A DNA stretch of 64,000 nt from Candidatus Aceula meridiana (GCA_030765185.1 JAVCDE010000018.1:2-64001); one strand, 5' to 3'; positions 4,757-64,000 are shown, numbered from the stretch's first letter. Made by a program: numbers and translations. The notes: generated from the sequence alone by a model not told the origin.

Positions 4757-5386
4757 ATGACAAAAAATTTATCTTCTATCTCGCTCAAGCCTCTTATTGT
4801 TGTCCTTCTGTGTATCACTTTATTTTTTATAGCTTATTATATTAAGGGTCGACTAGATATCGATCTTCTGCCAACACGTCATTTTCTTATTTTCAAAGAA
4901 GATTTCCAGGAAAAACATTTTATTGGGCAAAAAGAAAGATTCTTTGAATCCAAGAAAGAAAAAGAAGAACGAAACGCTTTGTTTAAAAAAATCCTAGCAG
5001 AGGCAGCAAAGGGTAAAAATATCGGCTGGATCGGAAAAGCTCGGCAGGGAGACCACGAATATCAAAATGGAACCATGTATTGGAAAGGAAGCGTGCATAC
5101 AGCTGTATTATTACCCAGAGGTGAGGCCATAATTATGCTTGAAGCTAAAGGTTCTAAGGCCAAGAATATTTTTCCTAAAGTCATCATTGAACTTGATAAT
5201 AAAGAAATCGAAAACTTATTTATTCGAAGCGAAGAATGGAAAACTTATCCTTTAAAAGTTAAAACAGACGGCGGGATGAAAATTTTAAGCGTAACATTTG
5301 TTAATGATTCTAATGACGATGGCCCAGGGCAAGATCGAAATTTGTTTCTTAAAAAAATCAAAATATCAAAACCTTCTCTAAATTAA
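4757..5386 (+). CDS. Membrane-anchored protein with a C-terminal CBM-like beta-sandwich domain
   Basis: N-terminal TM helix. C-terminal about 100 aa (NGTMYWKGSVHTAVLLP...AKGSKAKNIFPKVIIELDNKEI...ILSVTFVNDSNDDGPGQDRNLFL) is clearly paralogous to the C-terminus of the 17045-18106 product. The pattern resembles Ca-dependent carbohydrate-binding modules; that assignment is tentative. Confidence 0.5.
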   Translation: MTKNLSSISLKPLIVVLLCITLFFIAYYIKGRLDIDLLPTRHFLIFKEDFQEKHFIGQKERFFESKKEKEERNALFKKILAEAAKGKNIGWIGKARQGDHEYQNGTMYWKGSVHTAVLLPRGEAIIMLEAKGSKAKNIFPKVIIELDNKEIENLFIRSEEWKTYPLKVKTDGGMKILSVTFVNDSNDDGPGQDRNLFLKKIKISKPSLN

Positions 5387-17044: not shown

Positions 17045-18106
17045 ATGAAAATAAAGAACCTAATGGTCAAAATATTTTTGCTGTCTGCGGCTGCTATTTT
17101 GATAACTTTTTTAATAAAATTGCTTGCGGCTGATATTTTCTTTATCCAAGCTCAAAAATATGAAAAAAAATACCTTTTTGAGAAAGCAATAAATCACTAT
17201 CAAAAAGCCATTGACCTTGCCCCCTTATCTTCTGAATATTTAGGCTCATATGGAAAATTTCTTACCCGCATAAGCAAATACAATAAAGACAAATTTTCTA
17301 TTCTAAATAAAGCAGAAAAACTCTGCAAAGATGCTATTCAAAAAAATCCCATGGATTCAAAATTTTGGATTCTTTTAGGAAAAATTCAACTAGAACAATT
17401 TTCCGAAACTTCTGGCCCTGTATTCCTTAAATTAGCGATAAAATACTTCAAACAAGCTTTTAAAAACGACCCAAACGGAGAAATAACGACAGAAGGCATT
17501 GCATACAATTTAGCAGAATTTCTACTTCCTTTAAATAAGCCAGATTTTGACTGGGCATTGAATAAAATTAAAAAAACCCTTCAAGTCGATTACCCAGAAG
17601 TAGAATACCTCTATGTATCAGTATGGAAAAGTACTAAGAATATAAGTCTTTTAAAAGAATTAGCCGAAACTAGGTGGAAAAAACAAAAAAAAATAAAAAA
17701 GTCTCAAGAAAATGCGCCTATCGACCCATCTTTATTATCAAAAAAACAGTGGTATGAAAAATCTTTTGAAGGAAAGAATTTTTACAGCGATGGAAACATG
17801 TACTGGAATGGAACCGCGCATCAGTTTGTAGAAATTCCGGGACAAGCAAATGCCATCACCATTCAAGCGAAAGGTTCTTCAGCTTACGGTATCTGGCCCT
17901 ATATGGTCGTTTCCTTAAACGGAAAAGAAATCGGGGCTGATTTTATTCAAAACGTAGAATTTAAAAATTACGCTTATCCTATAGCAGCAGATAAAGAAAC
18001 AACGACAAAAATTATTAGTGTTACCTTTACAAACGATGGTGGCAACAAAATTGAAGACCGCAACCTTTATGTCGGCGAGGTAACAGCCTTATCAACTTCT
18101 CAATAA
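17045..18106 (+). CDS. Membrane-anchored TPR-repeat protein with a C-terminal CBM-like domain (paralogue of 4757-5386)
   Basis: N-terminal TM helix. TPR-like helical repeats (YEKKYLFEKAINHYQKAIDLAP...). C-terminal NGTAHQFVEIP...AKGSSAYGIWPYMVVSLNGKEI...ISVTFTNDGGNKIEDRNLYV. Confidence 0.5.
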   Translation: MKIKNLMVKIFLLSAAAILITFLIKLLAADIFFIQAQKYEKKYLFEKAINHYQKAIDLAPLSSEYLGSYGKFLTRISKYNKDKFSILNKAEKLCKDAIQKNPMDSKFWILLGKIQLEQFSETSGPVFLKLAIKYFKQAFKNDPNGEITTEGIAYNLAEFLLPLNKPDFDWALNKIKKTLQVDYPEVEYLYVSVWKSTKNISLLKELAETRWKKQKKIKKSQENAPIDPSLLSKKQWYEKSFEGKNFYSDGNMYWNGTAHQFVEIPGQANAITIQAKGSSAYGIWPYMVVSLNGKEIGADFIQNVEFKNYAYPIAADKETTTKIISVTFTNDGGNKIEDRNLYVGEVTALSTSQ

Positions 18107-18109
18107 AAT

Positions 18110-19363
18110 ATGAAGAGCGAAACCTTTAAAAATATTATTTTCTTTACACTGTCCGCTGTTATGCTATTTGCGCCTATGTTTAAAGGGTCTGTCACCCTTT
18201 GGTCAATCGCATCAATTCAAATTATCGTCTTTCTTTTAACATGTTTCTGGCTATGGCAAAAAAGCAATGAGAAGCAGTTGCGCTTTAAAACAACAAAGCT
18301 CGATAAGCCCATCCTGATTTTCTTTGTACTCGCCCTTGTTTCAGCGATTTTTAGCATTTATCCCTATGCAAGTGCCCTAGAATTACTTCGTTTAGCCATG
18401 TATGGAGCTATTTATTATCTACTTATCAATAACTTCGGAAGAACCCTTCAGATACGTTTTTGTAGCCTCATTATTATGATAGCTTGTGCCCTTTCGCTTT
18501 TCGGCCTTGGCCAATACTTCTTTGGCCTTAATCATTCTTGGTGGAAGCCGGCTGAATTTCTTGCTTCAACTTATGTTAATCATAACCATTTTGCAGGCTA
18601 CCTTGAAATGGCAATTGCCCTCTGTTGCGGTTTTTTGCTGGGGCTAGACAAACGCGAACACATTAGCCCTTTTCGTAGAAAAATGTGGAAAGTTCTCTTA
18701 ATCATAGCCGGCTGCCTGTTGCTGTTTGCTTTTGTATTGACACAATCACGTGGAGCCTGGCTGTCCCTGTCTTTGGCATTCTTAGTATATATTATTGTTT
18801 TAGTTCAAAAAAAGAAATTCAAGAAATGGACACTTTTCGCCTATTTAGTTCTTCTTGTGGTCGGAACAATCTTTTTATATGTTGGCGACGACAGCGTTGC
18901 CAAACGCGTCCAAACAATTAAAACCAAAGGCGCTGAAGCTTCTTGGCAAACCCGCCAAAGAATTTGGAAAGGAAGCATAACGATGATTAAAGATAATCCC
19001 CTATTAGGCACAGGAGTTGGAACCTTTGTCTGGGGATTTCCATCTTACCAGCCACAAGGAATCACTGGTCGCGCTCATTATGCCCATAATGATTATTTGC
19101 AGTCAGCTTGCGAAATGGGTCTGTTTGCCCTCCCTCTTATTTTTTGGATGATATATGTTATACTTAGCAAAGGATTTTACAGAGACAAAAACGACTCCCG
19201 TTTGATTCGCAATATTCGGCTAAGTGCCGCAATAGGTTTACTAAGCTTGATGATCCACAGCGCTGTTGATTTTAATCTTCATATCCCTGCGAATATGATA
19301 GCCGCAGCAGCTTTGGCAGCGATTGTCATGCGGACTTCTAAAAAAAATATTGAAAAAGATTAA
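18110..19363 (+). CDS. O-antigen ligase family protein (Wzy_C / WaaL-like)
   Basis: Polytopic membrane protein with LTQSRGAWLSLS and a large periplasmic loop (GTGVGTFVWGF...HYAHNDYLQSACEMGL). Confidence 0.75.
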   Translation: MKSETFKNIIFFTLSAVMLFAPMFKGSVTLWSIASIQIIVFLLTCFWLWQKSNEKQLRFKTTKLDKPILIFFVLALVSAIFSIYPYASALELLRLAMYGAIYYLLINNFGRTLQIRFCSLIIMIACALSLFGLGQYFFGLNHSWWKPAEFLASTYVNHNHFAGYLEMAIALCCGFLLGLDKREHISPFRRKMWKVLLIIAGCLLLFAFVLTQSRGAWLSLSLAFLVYIIVLVQKKKFKKWTLFAYLVLLVVGTIFLYVGDDSVAKRVQTIKTKGAEASWQTRQRIWKGSITMIKDNPLLGTGVGTFVWGFPSYQPQGITGRAHYAHNDYLQSACEMGLFALPLIFWMIYVILSKGFYRDKNDSRLIRNIRLSAAIGLLSLMIHSAVDFNLHIPANMIAAAALAAIVMRTSKKNIEKD

Positions 19364-19394
19364 GAATTAGGAAACGCGAAAGGAGAAGCAAATA

Positions 19395-20846
19395 ATGATT
19401 AATGAACGCAGAAAAGTTTTTTATACGCTCTTAATCATTATTGATGCTTTTGTCATTACAGCTGCGTTTCTCGCGGCTTACTTTTTAAGAAAAAATTTTC
19501 ATGCCTTTTACACATTCGACTTATTCCCGCATGCAGAAATTGTTAACGAAATCTCTCTTGAGGAAGGCCTCTACGCAAATGTCTACCTCTTAGGATTAAT
19601 AACGTGGATTCCTGTTCTTTGGGTTGTTGGCTTTTACAATTCTTTCCGCACAAGCTCCTATCTCAAAGAAGTCTGGCTGCTCTTTAAAGCATCCATTTTG
19701 ACGATATTAACTTTCGGAAGCTTGGCATTTATCTTTAAAGTAGAATTTGTCAGTCGCATGTTTTTGGGAATTTTTATTGCAACAAGCTCGTTATTTTTAC
19801 TCATAACCCGCCTCGTCGTCGTTAAAATCACCCGCTCCCTTCGCCGTCGCGGGCGCAACTATCGACAGATTTTACTTGTCGGAACAGGTCCCCGGGCAAA
19901 AAAATTTATCGGTCTTCTCTACAAACACGCCGAGTGGGGGTTAAAAATCAAAGGACTCTTGGATATTGACCCCGAAAAGGTCGGAAAGAATTTCTTCGGA
20001 ATTAAATGCATCGGAACAATTGATGATATCTCAAAAATTCTCGACAGGTGCGTTATCGATGAAGTCGTTGTTGTTGTGCCAAGGTCTTGGCTAACATCAA
20101 TCCAAAATCTTGTATCTATCTGCGAACTCCGCGGCATCCAAGTTAACGTCGCCAGTGACCTGTTCGATCTTAATATTGCACGGGCAACTCAACGAGACTT
20201 AGACGGCTTTCCTTTAATGACGTTTGAAACAACTTTCGTCCACGAATGGGATTTGATTATTAAACGTATGTTTGATATTCTCTTTTCGCTTTCTGGAATT
20301 TTCTTCTTTTTTCCCTTATTTCTCCTTGTTGCCATAATCATCAAAATCACATCTCCGGGCCCTGTTTTCTTTCAGCAAAAACGTGTTGGCCTAAACGGCC
20401 GCCCCTTTTATTTACATAAATTCCGCTCAATGAATAAAAACGCCTCAGCGCAACTAGAAAAAGTCCAACATCTTAATGAGATGGACGGACCAGTCTTTAA
20501 AATTAAGAATGATCCGCGTGTTTTTCCATTTGGAAAAATTTTACGTAAAACAAGCATTGATGAGCTGCCACAATTACTTGATGTTTTAGTGGGAAACATC
20601 AGCATCGTTGGGCCTCGCCCTCCTCTGCCGAAAGAAGTTGAACAATACGAGCCTTGGCAGAAAAGACGCTTAAGCATGCGACCTGGGATTACATGCTTGT
20701 GGCAAATTATGGGTCGTAACAAATTAAGTTTTAAGCAGTGGATGGAACTAGATCTTCAGTATATTGATAATTGGTCTCTGTGGCTGGACTTTAAAATTTT
20801 AATGAGAACGATTCCTACTGTCATTTTTGGCGATGGAGCAAGCTAA
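19395..20846 (+). CDS. Polyprenyl-phosphate sugar phosphotransferase (WbaP/EpsZ-type initiating transferase, Bac_transf domain)
   Basis: 4-5 N-terminal TM helices. C-terminal FFFPLFLLVAIIIKITSPGPVFFQQKRVG...KFRSM...DELPQLLDVLVGNISIVGPRP. Confidence 0.85.
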   Translation: MINERRKVFYTLLIIIDAFVITAAFLAAYFLRKNFHAFYTFDLFPHAEIVNEISLEEGLYANVYLLGLITWIPVLWVVGFYNSFRTSSYLKEVWLLFKASILTILTFGSLAFIFKVEFVSRMFLGIFIATSSLFLLITRLVVVKITRSLRRRGRNYRQILLVGTGPRAKKFIGLLYKHAEWGLKIKGLLDIDPEKVGKNFFGIKCIGTIDDISKILDRCVIDEVVVVVPRSWLTSIQNLVSICELRGIQVNVASDLFDLNIARATQRDLDGFPLMTFETTFVHEWDLIIKRMFDILFSLSGIFFFFPLFLLVAIIIKITSPGPVFFQQKRVGLNGRPFYLHKFRSMNKNASAQLEKVQHLNEMDGPVFKIKNDPRVFPFGKILRKTSIDELPQLLDVLVGNISIVGPRPPLPKEVEQYEPWQKRRLSMRPGITCLWQIMGRNKLSFKQWMELDLQYIDNWSLWLDFKILMRTIPTVIFGDGAS

Positions 20847-26077: not shown

Positions 26078-27112
26078 TTACCGCAAGGCGTATTCAGACC
26101 CATCAAATGCTAATATTGGCCCAAAAATAAATGGCAAGAAAATCAACCCGAGTCCAAAGAAAGCACCTTTTCCAAAGTTTTTTGCAATACCAATCATAAT
26201 GATAAAATAAAAAATAATACTTACATAAGGAACAAAAAATAGCAACAGCCACCAGCCCGGCTTACCGGCAATCTTACATTGAACATACTGGCCATAAATA
26301 GGAATAAGTTGCGACCATCCCGGATATCCGGCTTTGTTGCAAATTATCCACCAACAAATAATTGTAAAAAAGACAAAAATAGCGCCAAAAATAAAAGGAA
26401 TGATCGAACCAGACTTATTTGATTTTAGAGAGAAAATTTTAGCCGACTGCGCAGATTCATCATTCTCAGCCCGTTCTTTAAAACTCTTGGCTTCTAAAAT
26501 TTTCCGTGCATAAGCTGGGTCACTCTTAGCTCTCGCACGAACGCGATCACCAAAGAAATCTACAATAAAACCTACGAACGGAATCTTCTTGTCTTTAAGA
26601 AACTGTTTCATCTGGCTTAAGTCTTGTTGAATCCTACGTTCTATCTTACTAGCAGGATCAAGATCGTCAAAGTCATCTTCTTGCGGCAATTGTGTCGCAG
26701 AGGCATCTGGGGCTTCCTCTAAAATAGGCTCATCAGAGGCTTCGTCAGAGATTTCTATTTCTTCGGTTTTCTCAAAGAGAGACGTTAGCTTTTTGGAAAC
26801 ACCATAACTCTCGGCAGACTTCTCTCTTGATTTCTCAAAAATTTCCGAATAATCTTCTTCCTCTTGCGGAAAAACTTCTAGCTTCGTCTCTTCCTCAGGA
26901 TAATCTTGCACATTAGGCACTTCACCGTCTACGGTATCAATTTCATCAAAATAAAACTTTAAGTCCACACCCTCAAAATTAATTTTGACGTATCTATTCG
27001 TCTGCTCAACAATTTCGCCCTCAACAGACAGCCCGGACTTCAGCTCAATCTTAGCTGCATAAGCATTTGCCGAAACAAATAATACTAATAAAAAAAATAA
27101 AATTTTTTTCAT
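26078..27112 (-). CDS. Secreted protein with a C-terminal DUF5684-like membrane domain (tandem paralogue 1, with an acidic linker)
   Basis: Signal peptide plus a conserved ~45-aa N-domain (AAKIELKSGLSVEGEIVEQTNRYVKINFEGVDLKFYFDEID). C-terminal CNKAGYPGWSQLIPIYGQYVQCKIAGKPGWWLLLFFVP...NFGKGAFFGLGLIFLPFIFGPILAF. Confidence 0.6.
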   Translation of the reverse strand: MKKILFFLLVLFVSANAYAAKIELKSGLSVEGEIVEQTNRYVKINFEGVDLKFYFDEIDTVDGEVPNVQDYPEEETKLEVFPQEEEDYSEIFEKSREKSAESYGVSKKLTSLFEKTEEIEISDEASDEPILEEAPDASATQLPQEDDFDDLDPASKIERRIQQDLSQMKQFLKDKKIPFVGFIVDFFGDRVRARAKSDPAYARKILEAKSFKERAENDESAQSAKIFSLKSNKSGSIIPFIFGAIFVFFTIICWWIICNKAGYPGWSQLIPIYGQYVQCKIAGKPGWWLLLFFVPYVSIIFYFIIMIGIAKNFGKGAFFGLGLIFLPFIFGPILAFDGSEYALR

Positions 27113-27127
27113 ATTTTGCCTTAATTC

Positions 27128-27856
27128 TTATGTTACAGCTTCTGGAGCTTTTTCGGATTCATTGCTCATATACTGGGAATTATCAAATGCCAATATCGGC
27201 CAGAAAATAAACGGCAAGAAAATCAATCCAAGACCAAACCCAACACCTTTACCAAAATTTCTAGCGATGCCAATATATACGGCAAATGCTACAATAATAC
27301 TCACGATAGGGACAAAAAACAACAAAAGCCACCAGCCCGGCTTACCGGCAATCTTACACTGTACATATACACCATAAAAAGGAACAAGCTGAGACCATCC
27401 CGGATATCCAGCCTTATTGCAAACTTTCCAAGTAGAAACAAGAATAAGAAGTACAAAAATTAAACCAAACACAAACTTCACTATCGCCTCTTGCAAAGAA
27501 ATCTTGCCTTCGCCCTCATTTGTTTTCTGAAGTTGTTTGAGAATTGAAACAAAATCCGCTGGAGCTTTATAAGGTTCAGCAGGCGCTTGAGATGCAGGCA
27601 AAAGTTCCCTACCTTGATCCGGTATTAAAGCCTTTTGAGCCTCAAGGTCAGCATCATTAATAGGGCCTTCTTCAATGCTTTCAATTTCGTTAAAATAAAA
27701 TTTTGCATTGTCACCTCGAAAATTGATTTCAACGTATTGATCTGTTTTTTCGATAATATCGCAAGTGATAACTGCCCCATTTTTAAGTTGAATTTTTGCC
27801 GCGTGTGCGTTTGTGACGATTAATGCAATAATCAAAAATAATAAAATTTTTTTCAT
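27128..27856 (-). CDS. Secreted protein with a C-terminal DUF5684-like membrane domain (tandem paralogue 2)
   Basis: Same N-domain (AAKIQLKNGAVITCDIIEKTDQYVEINFRGDNAKFYFNEIE) and C-terminal CNKAGYPGWSQLVPFYGVYVQCKIAGKPGWWLLLFFVP...NFGKGVGFGLGLIFLPFIFWPILAF. Confidence 0.6.
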   Translation of the reverse strand: MKKILLFLIIALIVTNAHAAKIQLKNGAVITCDIIEKTDQYVEINFRGDNAKFYFNEIESIEEGPINDADLEAQKALIPDQGRELLPASQAPAEPYKAPADFVSILKQLQKTNEGEGKISLQEAIVKFVFGLIFVLLILVSTWKVCNKAGYPGWSQLVPFYGVYVQCKIAGKPGWWLLLFFVPIVSIIVAFAVYIGIARNFGKGVGFGLGLIFLPFIFWPILAFDNSQYMSNESEKAPEAVT

Positions 27857-28030: not shown

Positions 28031-28417
28031 TTAAGGCTTTATATATTTTACCTTTCCATCGATAAAATAAAAAAAATAACTATATACATAATTTGAAAAG
28101 AATGGAATAAATCCCTTTGAATACTTATAAATCCAAACTTCTTCTGCCGTGGCATATTTACAATCTGACTTTTTGCATCCAGGTGTTAAAAGAACTGGAA
28201 TATCCTCCCATTTTCCATGAGGTTTTCCGAATATTTCTCTGATTTGATCTTTGGTTTTCTCCATGTAACCCTGAAGCTCATAATGCCTTTTTTCCTGATC
28301 TTCAATGTATTTATTTGTCTGTCCTTCTGAAGAGTATTGCACCCAATCTCCATAACCACATCCTACGATTAAGATGGAAAGGCTTAACAACAATCCTAAG
28401 CATAAAAGCTTCTTCAT
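28031..28417 (-). CDS. Small lipoprotein, a candidate immunity protein for the upstream RHS toxin
   Basis: The start was refined to the internal Met (MKKLLCLGLLLSLSILIVGCG, a lipobox IVGC) with an AGGAAG RBS 9 nt upstream. It begins 14 nt after the RHS stop. Confidence 0.5.
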   Translation of the reverse strand: MKKLLCLGLLLSLSILIVGCGYGDWVQYSSEGQTNKYIEDQEKRHYELQGYMEKTKDQIREIFGKPHGKWEDIPVLLTPGCKKSDCKYATAEEVWIYKYSKGFIPFFSNYVYSYFFYFIDGKVKYIKP

Positions 28418-28430
28418 ATTATAATACTTC

Positions 28431-31400
28431 CTAAATTCCATAATTTGAATGGACTGAGAATCCAAACATTGCTCCTGCTCCAACAGCCCCGCCTGCAATA
28501 TTGATTGGATTTAAATTTGGCCCGACTAAATTAATTGGATCAAAAATATGATTCATACATCCTGTCATGTTGGCACCACCCATCCAAGAAGATAAAGCCG
28601 CCATGGGCTGGCTGATAGCTGCGGCCATATAGGTTACTGTTGAACCACCAGCTAACTGCCTTCCCGTTAGGCCAAGATTCATCAAGGCATTTGAGGTTGT
28701 TATTGTTCCTTGGCTGTGTGGAATAATGTTTATTGGTCCACCAATTTTTGCTAGGCCATCAGCGAATTGTCTATCCAAAGAGCTTGTTCGAAATATTTTC
28801 TGAAATATACTCTCTGTAAAGTCAGCGATGCTACCTGCTGAAGGATTATAATACAGATAGGAAGCACCATGCTTTTGTAATGCATCTTTGGCAGCATCAG
28901 GAAGCGAAGTATTAACTCCGTTTGTGTAGAGGGTGTTTCCTGACGGGATCTCCGAAGGATCAATGCTTTCATAAACAAGCCCGCTGTCTCCTCCAAAAAC
29001 CCTGTAGAAACCCATTCTTTTATCTTCTTCCGAAATCCAAGCAGCGATTCCTTTGCCAACATTCCACGCGAAGTTTATTGCCGATAATCCCATCGCCGCA
29101 TAAGTGAATCCTTGGCTTATAGTAGGGTCTCTCGACGTTGCACTAGCTACTTGAGAGCCCAGGCTCATCCATGCAGAAGCCTTTAAAAGAACCATTCCTT
29201 GTGCAGTCGATCCAATAGTTCCTCCGGACATGCCTCCCATTACAGCTCCGATCAAAACACTCTGCCATTGAACCTTTCCGGTTTGTTGATAAGAAGATAC
29301 TGCTCCGGCAATGGCACCAATAATCGCTCCAATAATTAACCAAGGAAAATTTCCACTCGGATCGGTATAGCACAACGGTGAATTATAAACATAGCTATAA
29401 CGATTCAAGGACTGTGAATTCGTCGGATTAGGCATCATCGGATCTGCAGTCAAAAACCTGCCAATGAGCGGATTATAATACCTAGCTCCATAATAGTATA
29501 GGCCTGTCTCATCATCAAGCTTTTTACCTGTGAAATAAAAATGAGAAACTTGTGATGAATCTCCGTACATCTCATGGCGAGAAAAAAGACCAAACGGTAA
29601 ATATTCACAAAGCTCTTTAACCTCTCCCTGAGCGTCTGTTGTTGCGTTGATGCTGCCAAGATGATTATTAAAATAGTACATAATTTCACCATTCTTAACA
29701 CTAGCGATACGCCTATTTCCCAAATAAATATATGTTAATGGCCCATCTGAATTCTCTTCGTAAAGCGACCCTATGTATTGAGTTGTTTTCTTTCCAATAG
29801 CTATGCTGACGGATGAATTAACATGGGAATCCCCGGCGAATTTTCCTAGATCGAAGAACTTGTTCTTTCCATTATTGTCATAACATTGAGCACCTCCTTG
29901 ATAAACTATTTTCTGAGTTCTCCCTCCCTCTCCGTCGTAGACATATTGAGCTTTAAGCGCAGAATTTTTCTTGACTTCAACAAGCCGGTTCTCAGCATCA
30001 TAATTATATTGCCAAAACTTACCTTCATCATCTATCATTTCAATCATATTGCCGTTTTCATCATAAGAAAAAACAGTTCCATCTGATAATGACGTTACCG
30101 CGTGTGGTCCAGCGCCATTTTCTCCGTAGGCATACGCTTTTCCATCTTTCTCAATAATATTTCCAATCGCATCATATTGATAAGTTTTTATTCCATAATT
30201 CCCTTGTGCTTGAATCAAACGATTCAATGCGTCGTAAGAGAAATATTGAGAATCTGTATTTACGCTATCGACAATCATCTTGATGTTGCCAACACTATCA
30301 TACGAGTATTCTAAGTCCTGGATTGCTTCGCCTTCAGGGTTAATTGTCAAAATTTTCTGAAGACGTAATGTATCCTCCTCATAGGTATATGTTGTCATCA
30401 TTCCATTCTCGTATTCAATCTTTGTTATCTGCCCGGGCGCGTCATATTCAACATTACGGATAAAAATCTCATCACCTAAATCTTTGCCCGGGACAGAATC
30501 ATAGCAATGAACAAGAGTAATATAATCCGTTGTATTATTTTTAGGATAGCGCCGGATCTCTCCTTTCCAAGCAAAAGTATTTGTGTTTTGCTGCCAGCTT
30601 TCATTATTAATAATTGTTAAATTCTTATTAATACTTATCGTCCCCGGGCTACCATCGGTAACAAAGCCTTCTTCTTCCCACCAATTTCCCTGATCATCTA
30701 ATGCCGCCAATTCCATTGAATCTTCATCAACAATAGAAAAATAATATTTATAATCATAATCATCATTATTAAAAGTTGGGATAGGGTCTGTCCATGAAAA
30801 ACTAACTTCATAGCTATCTTCACGATCAACAAGTGGATGATAATGATTTGTTGTCATCTCGACATGAAGCCCTGTTCCGACCTCAACCGGAAATTCTAAT
30901 GAAAGCGGAGTAAAAAAACTCCAAGAATTAAAAGGATTATACGAACGTCCAGGATGAACACGCCTTAACTGGGCAACCCATACATAGTCAGTAATCAAAT
31001 CGCCATTATATTCATCGTATGCGATAAGCTCTTTTGACTCAATATAATCTCCGTTTGGCTGATCACTTGGCATATTAACATCACCGTACCAATTACCATA
31101 GGATTCTGGATCTGCGGCTGCTAAATTTTGATATCCTGAGATATTTTCTTTTAATGCATAAAACAACCGATAATCTTCTGCAGGCACAACAGGAAGCCCA
31201 TTCCATGAAATATCAAAATCATATTCAGCGCGAACTCCTGGATGAGGATTTTGAGGAGAAACAGAAAAATTAAACTCAGGTGGCTCGGCAGCTGTCGTAT
31301 CGATTAAAATCTGAAAAGCAGTCGTGTAGGTTCCGCTATCAAACTGGTTATATGTTTGACCTGGAACAATGTGGCGAACCTCGACTATCCACCAATAGTT

Positions 31401-63436: not shown

Positions 63437-63555
63437 AAGCCCAGCAACGTTCTACTCTCCCACGGCCTTGCGACCGCAGTACCATCGACCTAGAAGAGTT
63501 TAACGGCCGTGTTCGGAATGGGAACGGGTGTGGCCCCTTCAGTAATGTTACTGGA
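63437..63555 (-). rRNA. rrf: 5S ribosomal RNA
   Basis: The reverse complement reads gtccagtaac...ccacacccgttcccattccgaacacggccgttaaactc...gggagagtagaacgttgctgggc. Helix I pairing between the termini. The conserved CCGAAC and GAGAGUAG boxes are present. Confidence 0.85.
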
Positions 63556-63619
63556 CATATCCTAAAATATACAATTATGGCAAAGTCGGCAAAAATGAGC
63601 CGATTTTTATATGAAAAAA

Positions 63620-64000
63620 TGGCAAAAAAGGTCAAGCATTTGACAGATTAGTACTGCTTAGCTAAAACCCTCACAGGTCTTACACATGCAGCCTATCAAC
63701 CTTGTTGTCTACAAGGTGTCTTCATTCCCGAAGGAAAACGATACCTTATCTTGAGGGGGGCTTCGCACTTATATGCTTTCAGTGCTTATCCTTTCCGGAC
63801 GTGGCTACCCAGCTATTACCCTTGGCAGGATAACTGGAACACCAGAGGTCCGTCTCTCCTGGTCCTCTCGTACTAGGGAGAGATCCTCTTCAAGTATCGT
63901 GCGCCCACACCAGATAGAGACCGAACTGTCTCACGACGTTCTAAACCCAGCTCGTGTACCGTTTTAACCGGCGAACAGCCGGACCCTTGGGACCTTGTAC
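63620..64000 (-). rRNA. rrl: 23S ribosomal RNA, 3' part (continues beyond the window end)
   Basis: The reverse-complement orientation matches the conserved 23S 3' domain (gagaccgaactgtctcacgacgttctaaacccagctcgtgtacc; ctcctggtcctctcgtactagg). Confidence 0.9.

Follow-up and report, generated by a model that had tools for sequence, protein, structure and literature searches.

The Locus and Its Source Genome

A 64,000-nt stretch of DNA from Candidatus Aceula meridiana (GCA_030765185.1 JAVCDE010000018.1:2-64001; hereafter, the window) contains, on its minus strand, an uninterrupted open reading frame (ORF) of 2578 codons (28431..36167). The ORF begins with a GTG codon directly preceded by a strong Shine-Dalgarno sequence (AGGGAGGGG), and its product is 100% identical to a protein annotated by NCBI as an SpvB/TcaC N-terminal domain-containing protein. 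An initial annotation, made from the sequence alone, described this giant protein as a fusion of the TcB and TcC components of a toxin complex (Tc), with a Sec signal and no TcA partner in view. The analysis reported here points, with moderate confidence, to a Sec-exported encapsulation toxin. Its RHS shell appears to hold a site for exchangeable binding modules, its cargo is a predicted esterase or lipase, and the gene that follows encodes a candidate immunity lipoprotein.

Candidatus A. meridiana is represented by an Omnitrophota metagenome-assembled genome (MAG) from Ace Lake, Antarctica, with a reported completeness of ~92%, and is described as an anaerobic fermenter (PMC8542988). The giant gene is not mentioned in the paper describing the MAG (PMC8542988), and no account of its family was found in the literature on RHS, SpvB, Tc, or polymorphic toxins in Omnitrophota. 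Homologs of the giant number ~1000 at E ≤ 1e-10, and those with a source name come mostly from Omnitrophota or Omnitrophica.

Domain Architecture of the Giant Protein

All features of the giant lie on the minus strand. The protein begins with a predicted Sec-type signal peptide (aa 1–25, MRYQKFFIILFVAMFIGLSTVNLSA/KGE; 36093..36167), as the initial annotation had proposed. Its sequence has the form of a signal peptidase I substrate, with a basic (K/R) n-region, a hydrophobic core (maximum Kyte-Doolittle [KD] value of 2.65), and a small-residue c-region ending in NLSA/KGE. A crude test identified signal-like N termini in 101 of 120 homologs, and all close homologs have comparable N termini. Several of the exceptions are shortened or mis-started, and a few, namely relatives such as P0081 and P0109, begin directly at the SpvB domain like canonical TcB. 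No lipobox cysteine, membrane anchor, or sorting signal was found in the giant, and the surface display suggested previously is unsupported. The signal peptide is followed by a polar low-complexity linker read from the sequence (aa 26–84; 35916..36092); homologs carry a linker of similar length (~50 aa) and diverged sequence, and the median start of their SpvB domain is residue 66.

The remainder of the N-terminal half corresponds to TcB. Profile searches recovered the expected SpvB/TcaC N-terminal domain (aa 87–244; 35436..35909; Pfam PF03534, E = 4.7e-30), which matches the structures of YenB, TcdB1, and SpvB. It is followed by a six-repeat FG-GAP (integrin-like) β-propeller (aa ~360–705; 34053..35090) that matched the Pfam models FG-GAP_3 (E = 1e-19) and FG-GAP. 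All six of the calcium loops attributed to the propeller were located, with DxNxDGxxD motifs at residues 386, 452, 526, 589, 642, and 690. A TcdB_toxin_midN domain (aa 684–809; 33741..34118; Pfam PF12256, E = 1.5e-22) leads into the first part of the RHS/YD shell (aa 810–1430; 31878..33740). This part matched the Pfam models RHS_repeat (E = 2e-38) and DUF6443, as well as the Rhs shells 8qja, 7q97, Tse5, and Tre23, and it ends at YTYNNAGQI. After an insert, described below, the shell resumes as part 2 (aa 1906–2188; 29604..30452), in which the best RHS_repeat stretch spans residues 2035–2066. Residues 1895–1970 align with YenC2 274–348 and TccC2 257–329.

The best solved relative of the protein is the engineered TcdB2-TccC3 fusion (6h6e, E = 5e-43), with YenB/YenC2 also among the best; lower scores were obtained for type VI secretion system (T6SS) Rhs shells, mosquito SGS1, and bacterial teneurin-like proteins. 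Together with the domain matches, the similarity to TcdB2-TccC3 bears out the interpretation of the giant as TcB and TcC joined in a single chain.

An Autoproteolysis Block Precedes a Hypervariable C Terminus

The shell is closed by an Rhs-associated core containing a putative aspartyl autoprotease plug (aa 2189–2273; 29349..29603; TIGR03696, E = 3.4e-20). In NCBIfam, Rhs_assc_core spans residues 2189–2272, and YD_repeat was also matched. The autoproteolysis block, recognized in the initial annotation, consists of RFLTADP (D2242) and PLCYTDPSG (residues 2264–2272, including P2264 and D2269). Both aspartates, and the arginine of GRF, are retained in every aligned homolog that covers the core. 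Identity among close homologs is ~45–70% through most of the shell and 45–53% just before (T/I)DPxG(H/N)xW; past DPxG, identity falls sharply to 5–21%, in agreement with the hypervariable C terminus of ~300 aa noted earlier. The predicted post-cut part of the giant is 305 aa long. In 107 homologs, its length ranges from 186 to 319 aa, with a median of 286 aa, and this narrow range is consistent with encapsulation in a capsule of limited size.

Apart from the signal peptide, the sole hydrophobic segment of the giant lies just past the predicted cleavage site, with transmembrane (TM)-like hydropathy at residues 2272–2295. A TM-like segment is found no more than 90 aa past the cut in 63 of the 107 homologs, irrespective of the type of toxin. 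A nearly identical leader, NFFKAIGIAIxGAALTIFSGGAL, was also observed ahead of unrelated toxins in the relatives P0004, P0009, and P0044; its recurrence suggests that it may be a reusable pretoxin membrane module.

The Cargo Is a Predicted Esterase or Lipase behind Glycine-Zipper Helices

The cargo has two parts. The first consists of glycine-zipper hydrophobic helices (aa ~2274–2380; 29028..29348), assigned from a weak match to Gly-zipper_YMGG; AlphaFold 2 (AF2) models this region as four helices with low to moderate confidence. The second is a compact predicted α/β-hydrolase (aa ~2381–2578; 28434..29027). Residues 2274–2578 matched no Pfam family. A word-index search performed with the cargo alone returned one match only, and the family was brought out by an exhaustive HMMER search, in which the cargo domain was found in 129 cluster representatives from proteins of 80–3090 aa. 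In nearly all of these representatives, it is located at the C terminus or a few residues from it. Other RHS giants are among them, as are many proteins that are short or fragmentary, and several representatives have an RHS or YD shell upstream.

Alignment of the family revealed six invariant columns, corresponding to G2417, D2449, S2485, G2487, D2543, and H2573. S2485 lies in a nucleophile elbow that reads PHSQG in the giant and GHSQG in the family consensus, and this elbow, along with the Ser-Asp-His order of the putative triad, supports assignment to the α/β-hydrolases. Weak matches among family members were to Tle3, DUF900, Abhydrolase_6, and Cutinase. The Tle3 matches were below threshold in 10 of 50 members (best E = 5e-4); no Tle Pfam family was matched significantly, and none was matched at all by the window protein. 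The best matches of the cargo profile among Protein Data Bank (PDB) entries were CE5 cutinase and acetylxylan esterase, and a structural model and its fold matches were cutinase- or phospholipase A1-like. We conclude that the cargo is a predicted small serine esterase or lipase preceded by ~100 aa of glycine-zipper helices. The lipase nature of the cargo had been overlooked in the initial annotation, as had the downstream lipoprotein and the cassette-like insert site described below.

A Lipoprotein Gene Is Coupled to the Giant

A candidate immunity gene, recognized from its sequence and spacing, encodes a 128-aa lipoprotein (MKKLLCLGLLLSLSILIVG/C; 28031..28417, minus strand) with a canonical lipobox (LIVG/C) and no Pfam family. 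The gene starts 13 nt past the stop codon of the giant, a codon that is overlapped by the Shine-Dalgarno sequence of the lipoprotein gene. The genes found directly 3′ of giants vary from locus to locus, encoding a PD40 propeller, a Sel1 protein, or small lipoproteins, as expected of cognate immunity genes. By BLAST, the window lipoprotein is unlike the products of genes directly downstream of other giants. A sensitive comparison identified a sole convincing homolog (phmmer E ~1e-9, in a seven-sequence set), encoded 3′ of the giant P0026, whose cargo is the closest to that of the window among full-length giants (41% identity). Because its homolog follows the relative with the closest cargo, the 128-aa lipoprotein is likely, as judged from sequence, to be an immunity protein.

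A related locus, L001, contains the cargo domain separated from any giant. There (18768–20164), a Y1 transposase gene is followed by an orphan copy of the lipase domain (19273–19770) and then by a small lipoprotein gene (19781–20164), whose product is weakly similar to the window lipoprotein. This is the classic orphan toxin-immunity layout of RHS loci. No orphan lipase cassette was found in the window. In related loci, the giant and its downstream gene were also observed to be followed by a Y1_Tnp (IS200/RAYT-like) gene and then by small ORFs (L003, 15127–16820; L004, 16563–18131; L005, 15509–17279; L009, 17176–19121). In the window, the genes just downstream of the candidate immunity gene encode tandem paralogous membrane proteins (26078–27112 and 27128–27856, both minus strand); both combine a signal peptide and a similar, short secreted domain at the N terminus with DUF5684 at the C terminus, and they share 73% identity over 106 aa.

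A Probable Site for Exchangeable Modules in the Shell

The YD repeats of the shell are broken between YTYNNAGQI and YDAPGQI by the insert (aa 1431–1905; 30453..31877), whose presence and size agree with the ~475-aa insert of the initial annotation. Repeat comparison and AF2 modeling divide it into a ~66-aa linker (1431–1496) and three Ig-like β-sandwiches of ~135 aa (1497–1632, 1633–1768, and 1769–1905). The three repeats are mutually homologous (hhalign probabilities of 99.8%, 96.2%, and 95.1%). No significant Pfam or PDB sequence match was obtained for the insert. The AF2 model contains three all-β domains with a mean pLDDT of 82.9, and the Foldseek matches to it are tandem Ig/FnIII-like sandwiches, including the integrin leg, macroglobulin, RbmA, and pilins.

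Six homologs share the insert (~471–476 aa, ~40% identity). The length of the site was taken as the distance between the flanking anchors in 97 homologs. In nearly all of the more distant homologs, it is 5–20 aa. In most of the 43 closest homologs, it is 226–1204 aa, and in a few of them, such as P0007 and P0025, it is only 9–57 aa. Recognized binding modules occupy the site in seven sister proteins: LamG/ConA-like lectin domains (one or two copies), PA14 with fn3 and GLEYA, GH115_C with fn3, fn3 alone, He_PIG with fn3 and PKD, or Big_9 with malectin or galactose-binding-like domains. Since the shell resumes at approximately residue 270 of YenC2, the site lies inside the half equivalent to TcC; for the same reason, the possibility that the insert marks an ancestral TcB-TcC junction was rejected. 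From these sequence comparisons, we read the site as a probable hot spot for exchangeable, outward-facing target-recognition cassettes. A structural precedent is offered by mosquito SGS1, in which sugar-binding and lectin domains are also spliced into the Rhs repeats and lie on the shell's exterior (PMC9935623). The triple Ig-like insert would itself serve in target recognition, because the sister proteins hold lectin, PA14, fn3, Ig, and malectin cassettes at the same position.

Upstream Genes and the Remainder of the Window

Giants are found beside a conserved block of genes. In related loci, the order is regulatory genes (encoding a histidine kinase, a response regulator, and an HTH-cupin regulator, divergent from the giant), then genes for proteins of ~90 aa and 529–559 aa and a secreted protein of ~95 aa, a variable slot, the giant, and a variable gene. 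The corresponding trio in the window, on the minus strand, encodes a 93-aa protein (38758–39039), a 552-aa β-propeller protein (37110–38768), and a 103-aa secreted protein with four cysteines and a Lys-rich tail (36774–37085). The full trio is found 5′ of the giant in seven related loci (L001, L003–L005, L007, L008, and the duplicate L006), and the two larger genes are also found there in L010 and L011, giving nine loci for the gene of the large protein.

The 552-aa protein has a signal or anchor sequence, a propeller like those of the hybrid two-component glycan sensors of Bacteroides (PDB 3ott, E = 7e-15), and an extremely conserved C-terminal region of ~170 aa that belongs to no known family. 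Its family contains more than 1600 homologs; those with a source name are almost all from Omnitrophota, and 11 of the top 120 are encoded on a contig that also bears a giant. A match to OEP/TolC in one of eight members was not significant (E = 0.1). The C-terminal region resembles half a TolC repeat by eye; this identity is not claimed, given the single nonsignificant OEP match. Locus L012 contains a similar block, with a 533-aa homolog of the large protein and no giant, and P0044 is a giant without the partner block. These two cases exclude the 552-aa protein as an obligatory export factor, and its involvement in export or docking of the giant is only a hypothesis.

The slot between the trio and the giant is occupied in the window by a gene for an ORF6N (KilA-N-like) protein (36183–36707, minus strand). 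Elsewhere, it contains genes for 23S_rRNA_IVP/bAvd-like four-helix proteins, SpoVG, an NTase and NTase_sub_bind pair, or a Y1 transposase (L001, 9104–9505; L005, 6131–7847; L010, 3747–5337; L011, 11679–12787). Small genes of a mobile or defense type seem to use the slot as a landing site.

The rest of the window is ordinary chromosome, with an exopolysaccharide (EPS) locus, serS, fab genes, plsX, coaD, recG, and a resistance-nodulation-division (RND) pump. Consistent with the initial annotation, no gene for TcA, VgrG, PAAR, Hcp, or another T6SS component, and no gene of TcA size, was found in the 64 kb; the sole other ORF of more than 1000 aa encodes the AcrB pump. Genes of extracellular contractile injection systems (eCIS) were also absent from the window, and no TcA, T6SS, or eCIS gene was present in the flanking sequence analyzed (up to ~10 kb) at ten related giant-bearing loci. 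Two proteins of the EPS/glycosylation locus (4757–5386 and 17045–18106, both plus strand) have a C-terminal domain of ~100 aa in common; in the second, this domain matched Pfam CBM60 (E = 5e-10), and its likeness in the first was seen by eye only. The window edge (63439–64000, minus strand) carries a 5S rRNA gene together with the 3′ end of a 23S rRNA gene, and the GC skew is negative throughout the 64 kb without a switch (cumulative value, −4.39).

Comparison with Known Systems

The giant resembles the TcB-TcC cocoons of TcdB2-TccC3 and YenB-YenC2 (PDB 4o9x, 6h6e, and 4igl) in its SpvB, FG-GAP, TcdB_mid, and RHS regions and its two-Asp core. Almost all Tc cargoes are 201–400 aa long (PMC7861908), a range that includes the ~300-aa hypervariable cargo described here. 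Several features differ. The Tc cocoon is made of two chains with a shell of ~2150 aa, whereas the giant is one polypeptide with a predicted cleavable Sec signal and a shell proper of ~1700 aa, interrupted in its TcC-equivalent part (near YenC2 residue 270) by the ~475-aa Ig-like insert. Tc toxins assemble in the cytoplasm without a signal peptide, in contrast to the Sec-signal-like N terminus of the giant, and ABC toxins require a type 10 secretion system (T10SS) for release (PMC13018210). Tc toxins use a TcA injector and their loci have no predicted immunity genes (PMC7861908), while the giant has no TcA in view and a candidate immunity lipoprotein downstream. The hosts also differ, being insect pathogens for Tc toxins and an anaerobic lake bacterium of the Omnitrophota for the giant. 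Natural tcB-tcC fusions, for example in B. pseudomallei, have been mentioned in the literature but not studied (PMC7861908, PMC6425310).

Among the closest described systems are the TcdB/TcaC polymorphic toxins of Zhang et al. (2012), a class defined there by a signal peptide, SpvB, an integrin-like β-propeller, and RHS, with a variable C-terminal toxin and an adjacent immunity gene (PMC3482391). The giant has exactly this order, from signal peptide to SpvB, propeller, and RHS. The variable toxin domains of the class are common to other scaffolds, as is the cargo of the giant, with its 129 representatives; lipase-like α/β-hydrolase toxin domains have also been described in polymorphic toxin systems (PMC3482391). 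Because the class was already defined in 2012, the general architecture of the giant is to be regarded as catalogued. The initial annotation overstated the obscurity of the class, which has a published definition and ~1000 homologs. Omnitrophota is outside the phyla listed in the section that defines the class, which predates the cocoon structures, treats the N-terminal domains as an export pathway, and does not describe the insert site (PMC3482391). Current Pfam models contain no match for the lipase family of the giant or for its lipoprotein family.

Teneurin-like proteins (TLPs; Raoelijaona et al. 2026) are toxins that combine in one chain a Sec signal, a YD shell, a PxxxxDPxG autoprotease, and a polymorphic C-terminal toxin; an immunity gene lies downstream, and delivery machinery is not obvious (PMC13018210). 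By analogy, they are the best-studied functional counterparts of the giant. TLPs are defined by an FN-plug, an NHL propeller, and a YD shell, and have N-terminal adhesion domains and a TIP domain (PMC13018210). Pfam searches of the giant gave no match to NHL or FN-plug; SpvB and FG-GAP fill those positions, so that the plug and propeller are of the TcB type and the earlier description of the protein as teneurin-like cannot be retained. The TLP structures 9pt5 and 9ifo match the giant only within the YD shell and core. The adhesion-type domains of the giant lie within the shell sequence rather than at the N terminus, and its cargo is larger (~32 kDa versus an average of ~15 kDa).

Mosquito SGS1 (PDB 8fjp), which matched significantly over the Rhs core of the giant, is a secreted single-chain Tc-like Rhs shell with an inserted carbohydrate-binding module and lectin carbohydrate-recognition domain displayed on its outside (PMC9935623). 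In SGS1, hydrophobic helices beyond the aspartyl protease site are kept within the shell, are proposed to become transmembrane, and are followed by a toxin domain; the protein is eukaryotic and thought to derive from a Wolbachia-type gene (PMC9935623). The propellers and insert positions of SGS1 and the giant differ. Homology of the SGS1 helices to those of the giant was considered and rejected, given that no match was found, and the two sets are regarded as analogous in organization only.

Of the features of T6SS Rhs effectors, PAAR, prePAAR, VgrG, and DUF4150 were absent from the giant, as was a two-partner secretion (TPS) or type 9 secretion system (T9SS) C-terminal domain, and the window contained no T6SS, TPS, or T9SS genes. 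T6SS lipase effectors (Tle) are neutralized by periplasm-facing Tli lipoproteins. These effectors are antibacterial, membrane-targeting α/β-hydrolases with a GxSxG motif, and the cargo of the giant has the same GxSxG fold; it differs in being much smaller (~200 aa), cutinase-like, and an RHS cargo rather than T6SS-delivered.

Discussion

The evidence favors, at better than even probability in our judgment, a Sec-exported encapsulation toxin that belongs to the TcdB/TcaC class, is of the TcB+TcC type in a single chain, and most likely acts independently of TcA. The drop in identity past DPxG, the occurrence of the cargo family on varied proteins, and the orphan cassette in L001 underlie its reading as a polymorphic toxin. 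In the proposed sequence of events, the 2578-aa precursor would be exported unfolded through Sec with removal of the 25-aa signal peptide, as suggested by conservation of the signal across the family. The SpvB domain, the FG-GAP propeller with its six blades, and the RHS repeats would then form a closed cocoon, in keeping with the domains present and homology to TcdB2-TccC3 and YenB-YenC2. From the motif observed, the core protease (D2242 and D2269) is predicted to cut after DPSG(N), leaving a cargo of ~305 aa inside. The three Ig-like domains, spliced into a hairpin of the shell, would project outward and recognize the target. On the target cell, some trigger would release the cargo from the shell, and the glycine-zipper helices would enter the membrane. 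The Ser-Asp-His hydrolase, for which fold and triad are evident, may then cleave ester lipids of the membrane or envelope. In the producer, the translationally coupled lipoprotein would neutralize the lipase in the periplasm, as its position and covariation with the cargo family suggest. The likely role of such a protein is attack by an Omnitrophota bacterium on neighboring or host microbes.

Several considerations weigh against this proposal. There is no evident outer-membrane route for a cocoon of ~286 kDa, which also lacks an anchor or sorting signal. One clear homologous pair carries the case for immunity, and the lipoprotein beside P0010, a giant with a cargo of the same family, is only weakly similar to that of the window. 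Immunity in the periplasm would guard solely against the producer's own exported precursor and is no proof of a bacterial target. The fold of the cargo fits cutinases, acetylxylan esterases, phospholipases A1, and thioesterases alike, so that several substrates are possible, and the post-cleavage helices taken alone have no sequence similarity to SGS1. With the MAG ~92% complete, a TcA gene may lie at a distant chromosomal position. Signal cleavage, autoproteolysis, lipase activity, and immunity are all predictions.

Three other explanations were considered. The giant could be the BC part of an ordinary tripartite ABC toxin directed at a eukaryotic host, with TcA encoded elsewhere in a split locus. 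TcdB2-TccC3 and YenB/YenC2 are its closest solved relatives, the TcB propeller is the element that docks TcA, some Tc-bearing bacteria, B. pseudomallei among them, have natural B-C fusions (PMC7861908, PMC6425310), and the MAG is incomplete (PMC8542988). We nevertheless consider a split locus unlikely, given the Sec signal on the giant and most homologs (P0081 and P0109 being among the few that start at SpvB), the lack of a TcA-sized gene in the window or in the flanks of the ten giant-bearing loci, and a coupled lipoprotein that covaries with the cargo, whereas Tc loci have no predicted immunity genes. The shell itself also carries receptor-type cassettes, a role that belongs to TcA in ABC toxins. 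For the giant, TcA independence is plausible.

An adhesin or cell-contact receptor acting in a teneurin-like manner, attaching the small cell of this Omnitrophota bacterium to its partner or host, would account for the Ig-like insert, for the lectin, PA14, fn3, and malectin modules of sister proteins, and for the glycan-sensor-like propeller of the upstream neighbor; bacterial teneurin-like proteins have been discussed as possible contact or signaling molecules (PMC13018210). The C terminus would then be vestigial or a local esterase. This explanation appears quite unlikely, because the autoprotease motif and Ser-Asp-His triad are strictly conserved, the C terminus turns over in the manner of polymorphic toxins, with orphan cassettes and candidate immunity genes, and no membrane anchor holds the giant on the producer. 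Very unlikely, in our view, is an Rhs effector of another apparatus (T6SS, eCIS or Photorhabdus virulence cassette [PVC], T9SS, or a two-partner-like system) for which the 552-aa protein perhaps serves in export or docking at the outer membrane. In its favor, T6SS Rhs shells scored significantly in the PDB, and the 552-aa protein gene with its small neighbors precedes the giant in nine loci, has 11 of its 120 top homologs on giant-bearing contigs, and encodes the extremely conserved ~170-aa C-terminal region with its faint OEP/TolC match in one of eight members. That match is not significant, however; the giant has none of the domains, and the window none of the genes, of these systems, and L012 (block without giant) and P0044 (giant without block) indicate that the link is not obligatory.

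The preferred reading, a Sec-exported and TcA-independent encapsulation toxin, could be extended to a broader proposal that we put forward tentatively and regard as doubtful at present. Omnitrophota may hold a large clade of all-in-one, TcA-free Tc-type toxins that are Sec-exported, recognize targets by swappable lectin or Ig cassettes in a single RHS shell hairpin, and deliver their own cargo, with the glycine-zipper helices kept behind the autoprotease site serving to translocate the following enzyme across the membrane. Such toxins would be a bacterial counterpart of the proposal made for SGS1 and a likely weapon of host-dependent or predatory nanobacteria, and the upstream propeller protein might be their outer-membrane export or docking partner.

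What appears to be new is the Omnitrophota setting, the shell hot spot with its swappable cassettes (including the triple Ig-like module, which belongs to no family), the compact lipase cargo family with glycine-zipper leader helices, and the lipoprotein partner of that cargo. Should TcA independence fail, the giant would still be unusual within its known toxin family; its triple Ig-like insert and compact lipase would remain two new domain families, and the lipoprotein would remain an immunity candidate. Tc toxins are under development as protein-delivery devices. The question of injector-free cargo release from RHS cocoons is also raised, and left unsettled, in the recent work on TLPs (PMC13018210). 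The ~1000 homologs constitute a natural and abundant test set for this question, with exchangeable receptor-type modules at a fixed shell site, tightly bounded cargo sizes, and many cargos that begin with predicted membrane-active helices. To our knowledge, the Omnitrophota are suspected of host-dependent lifestyles and have almost no experimental biology; for these bacteria, the family points to a weapon of contact or attack.

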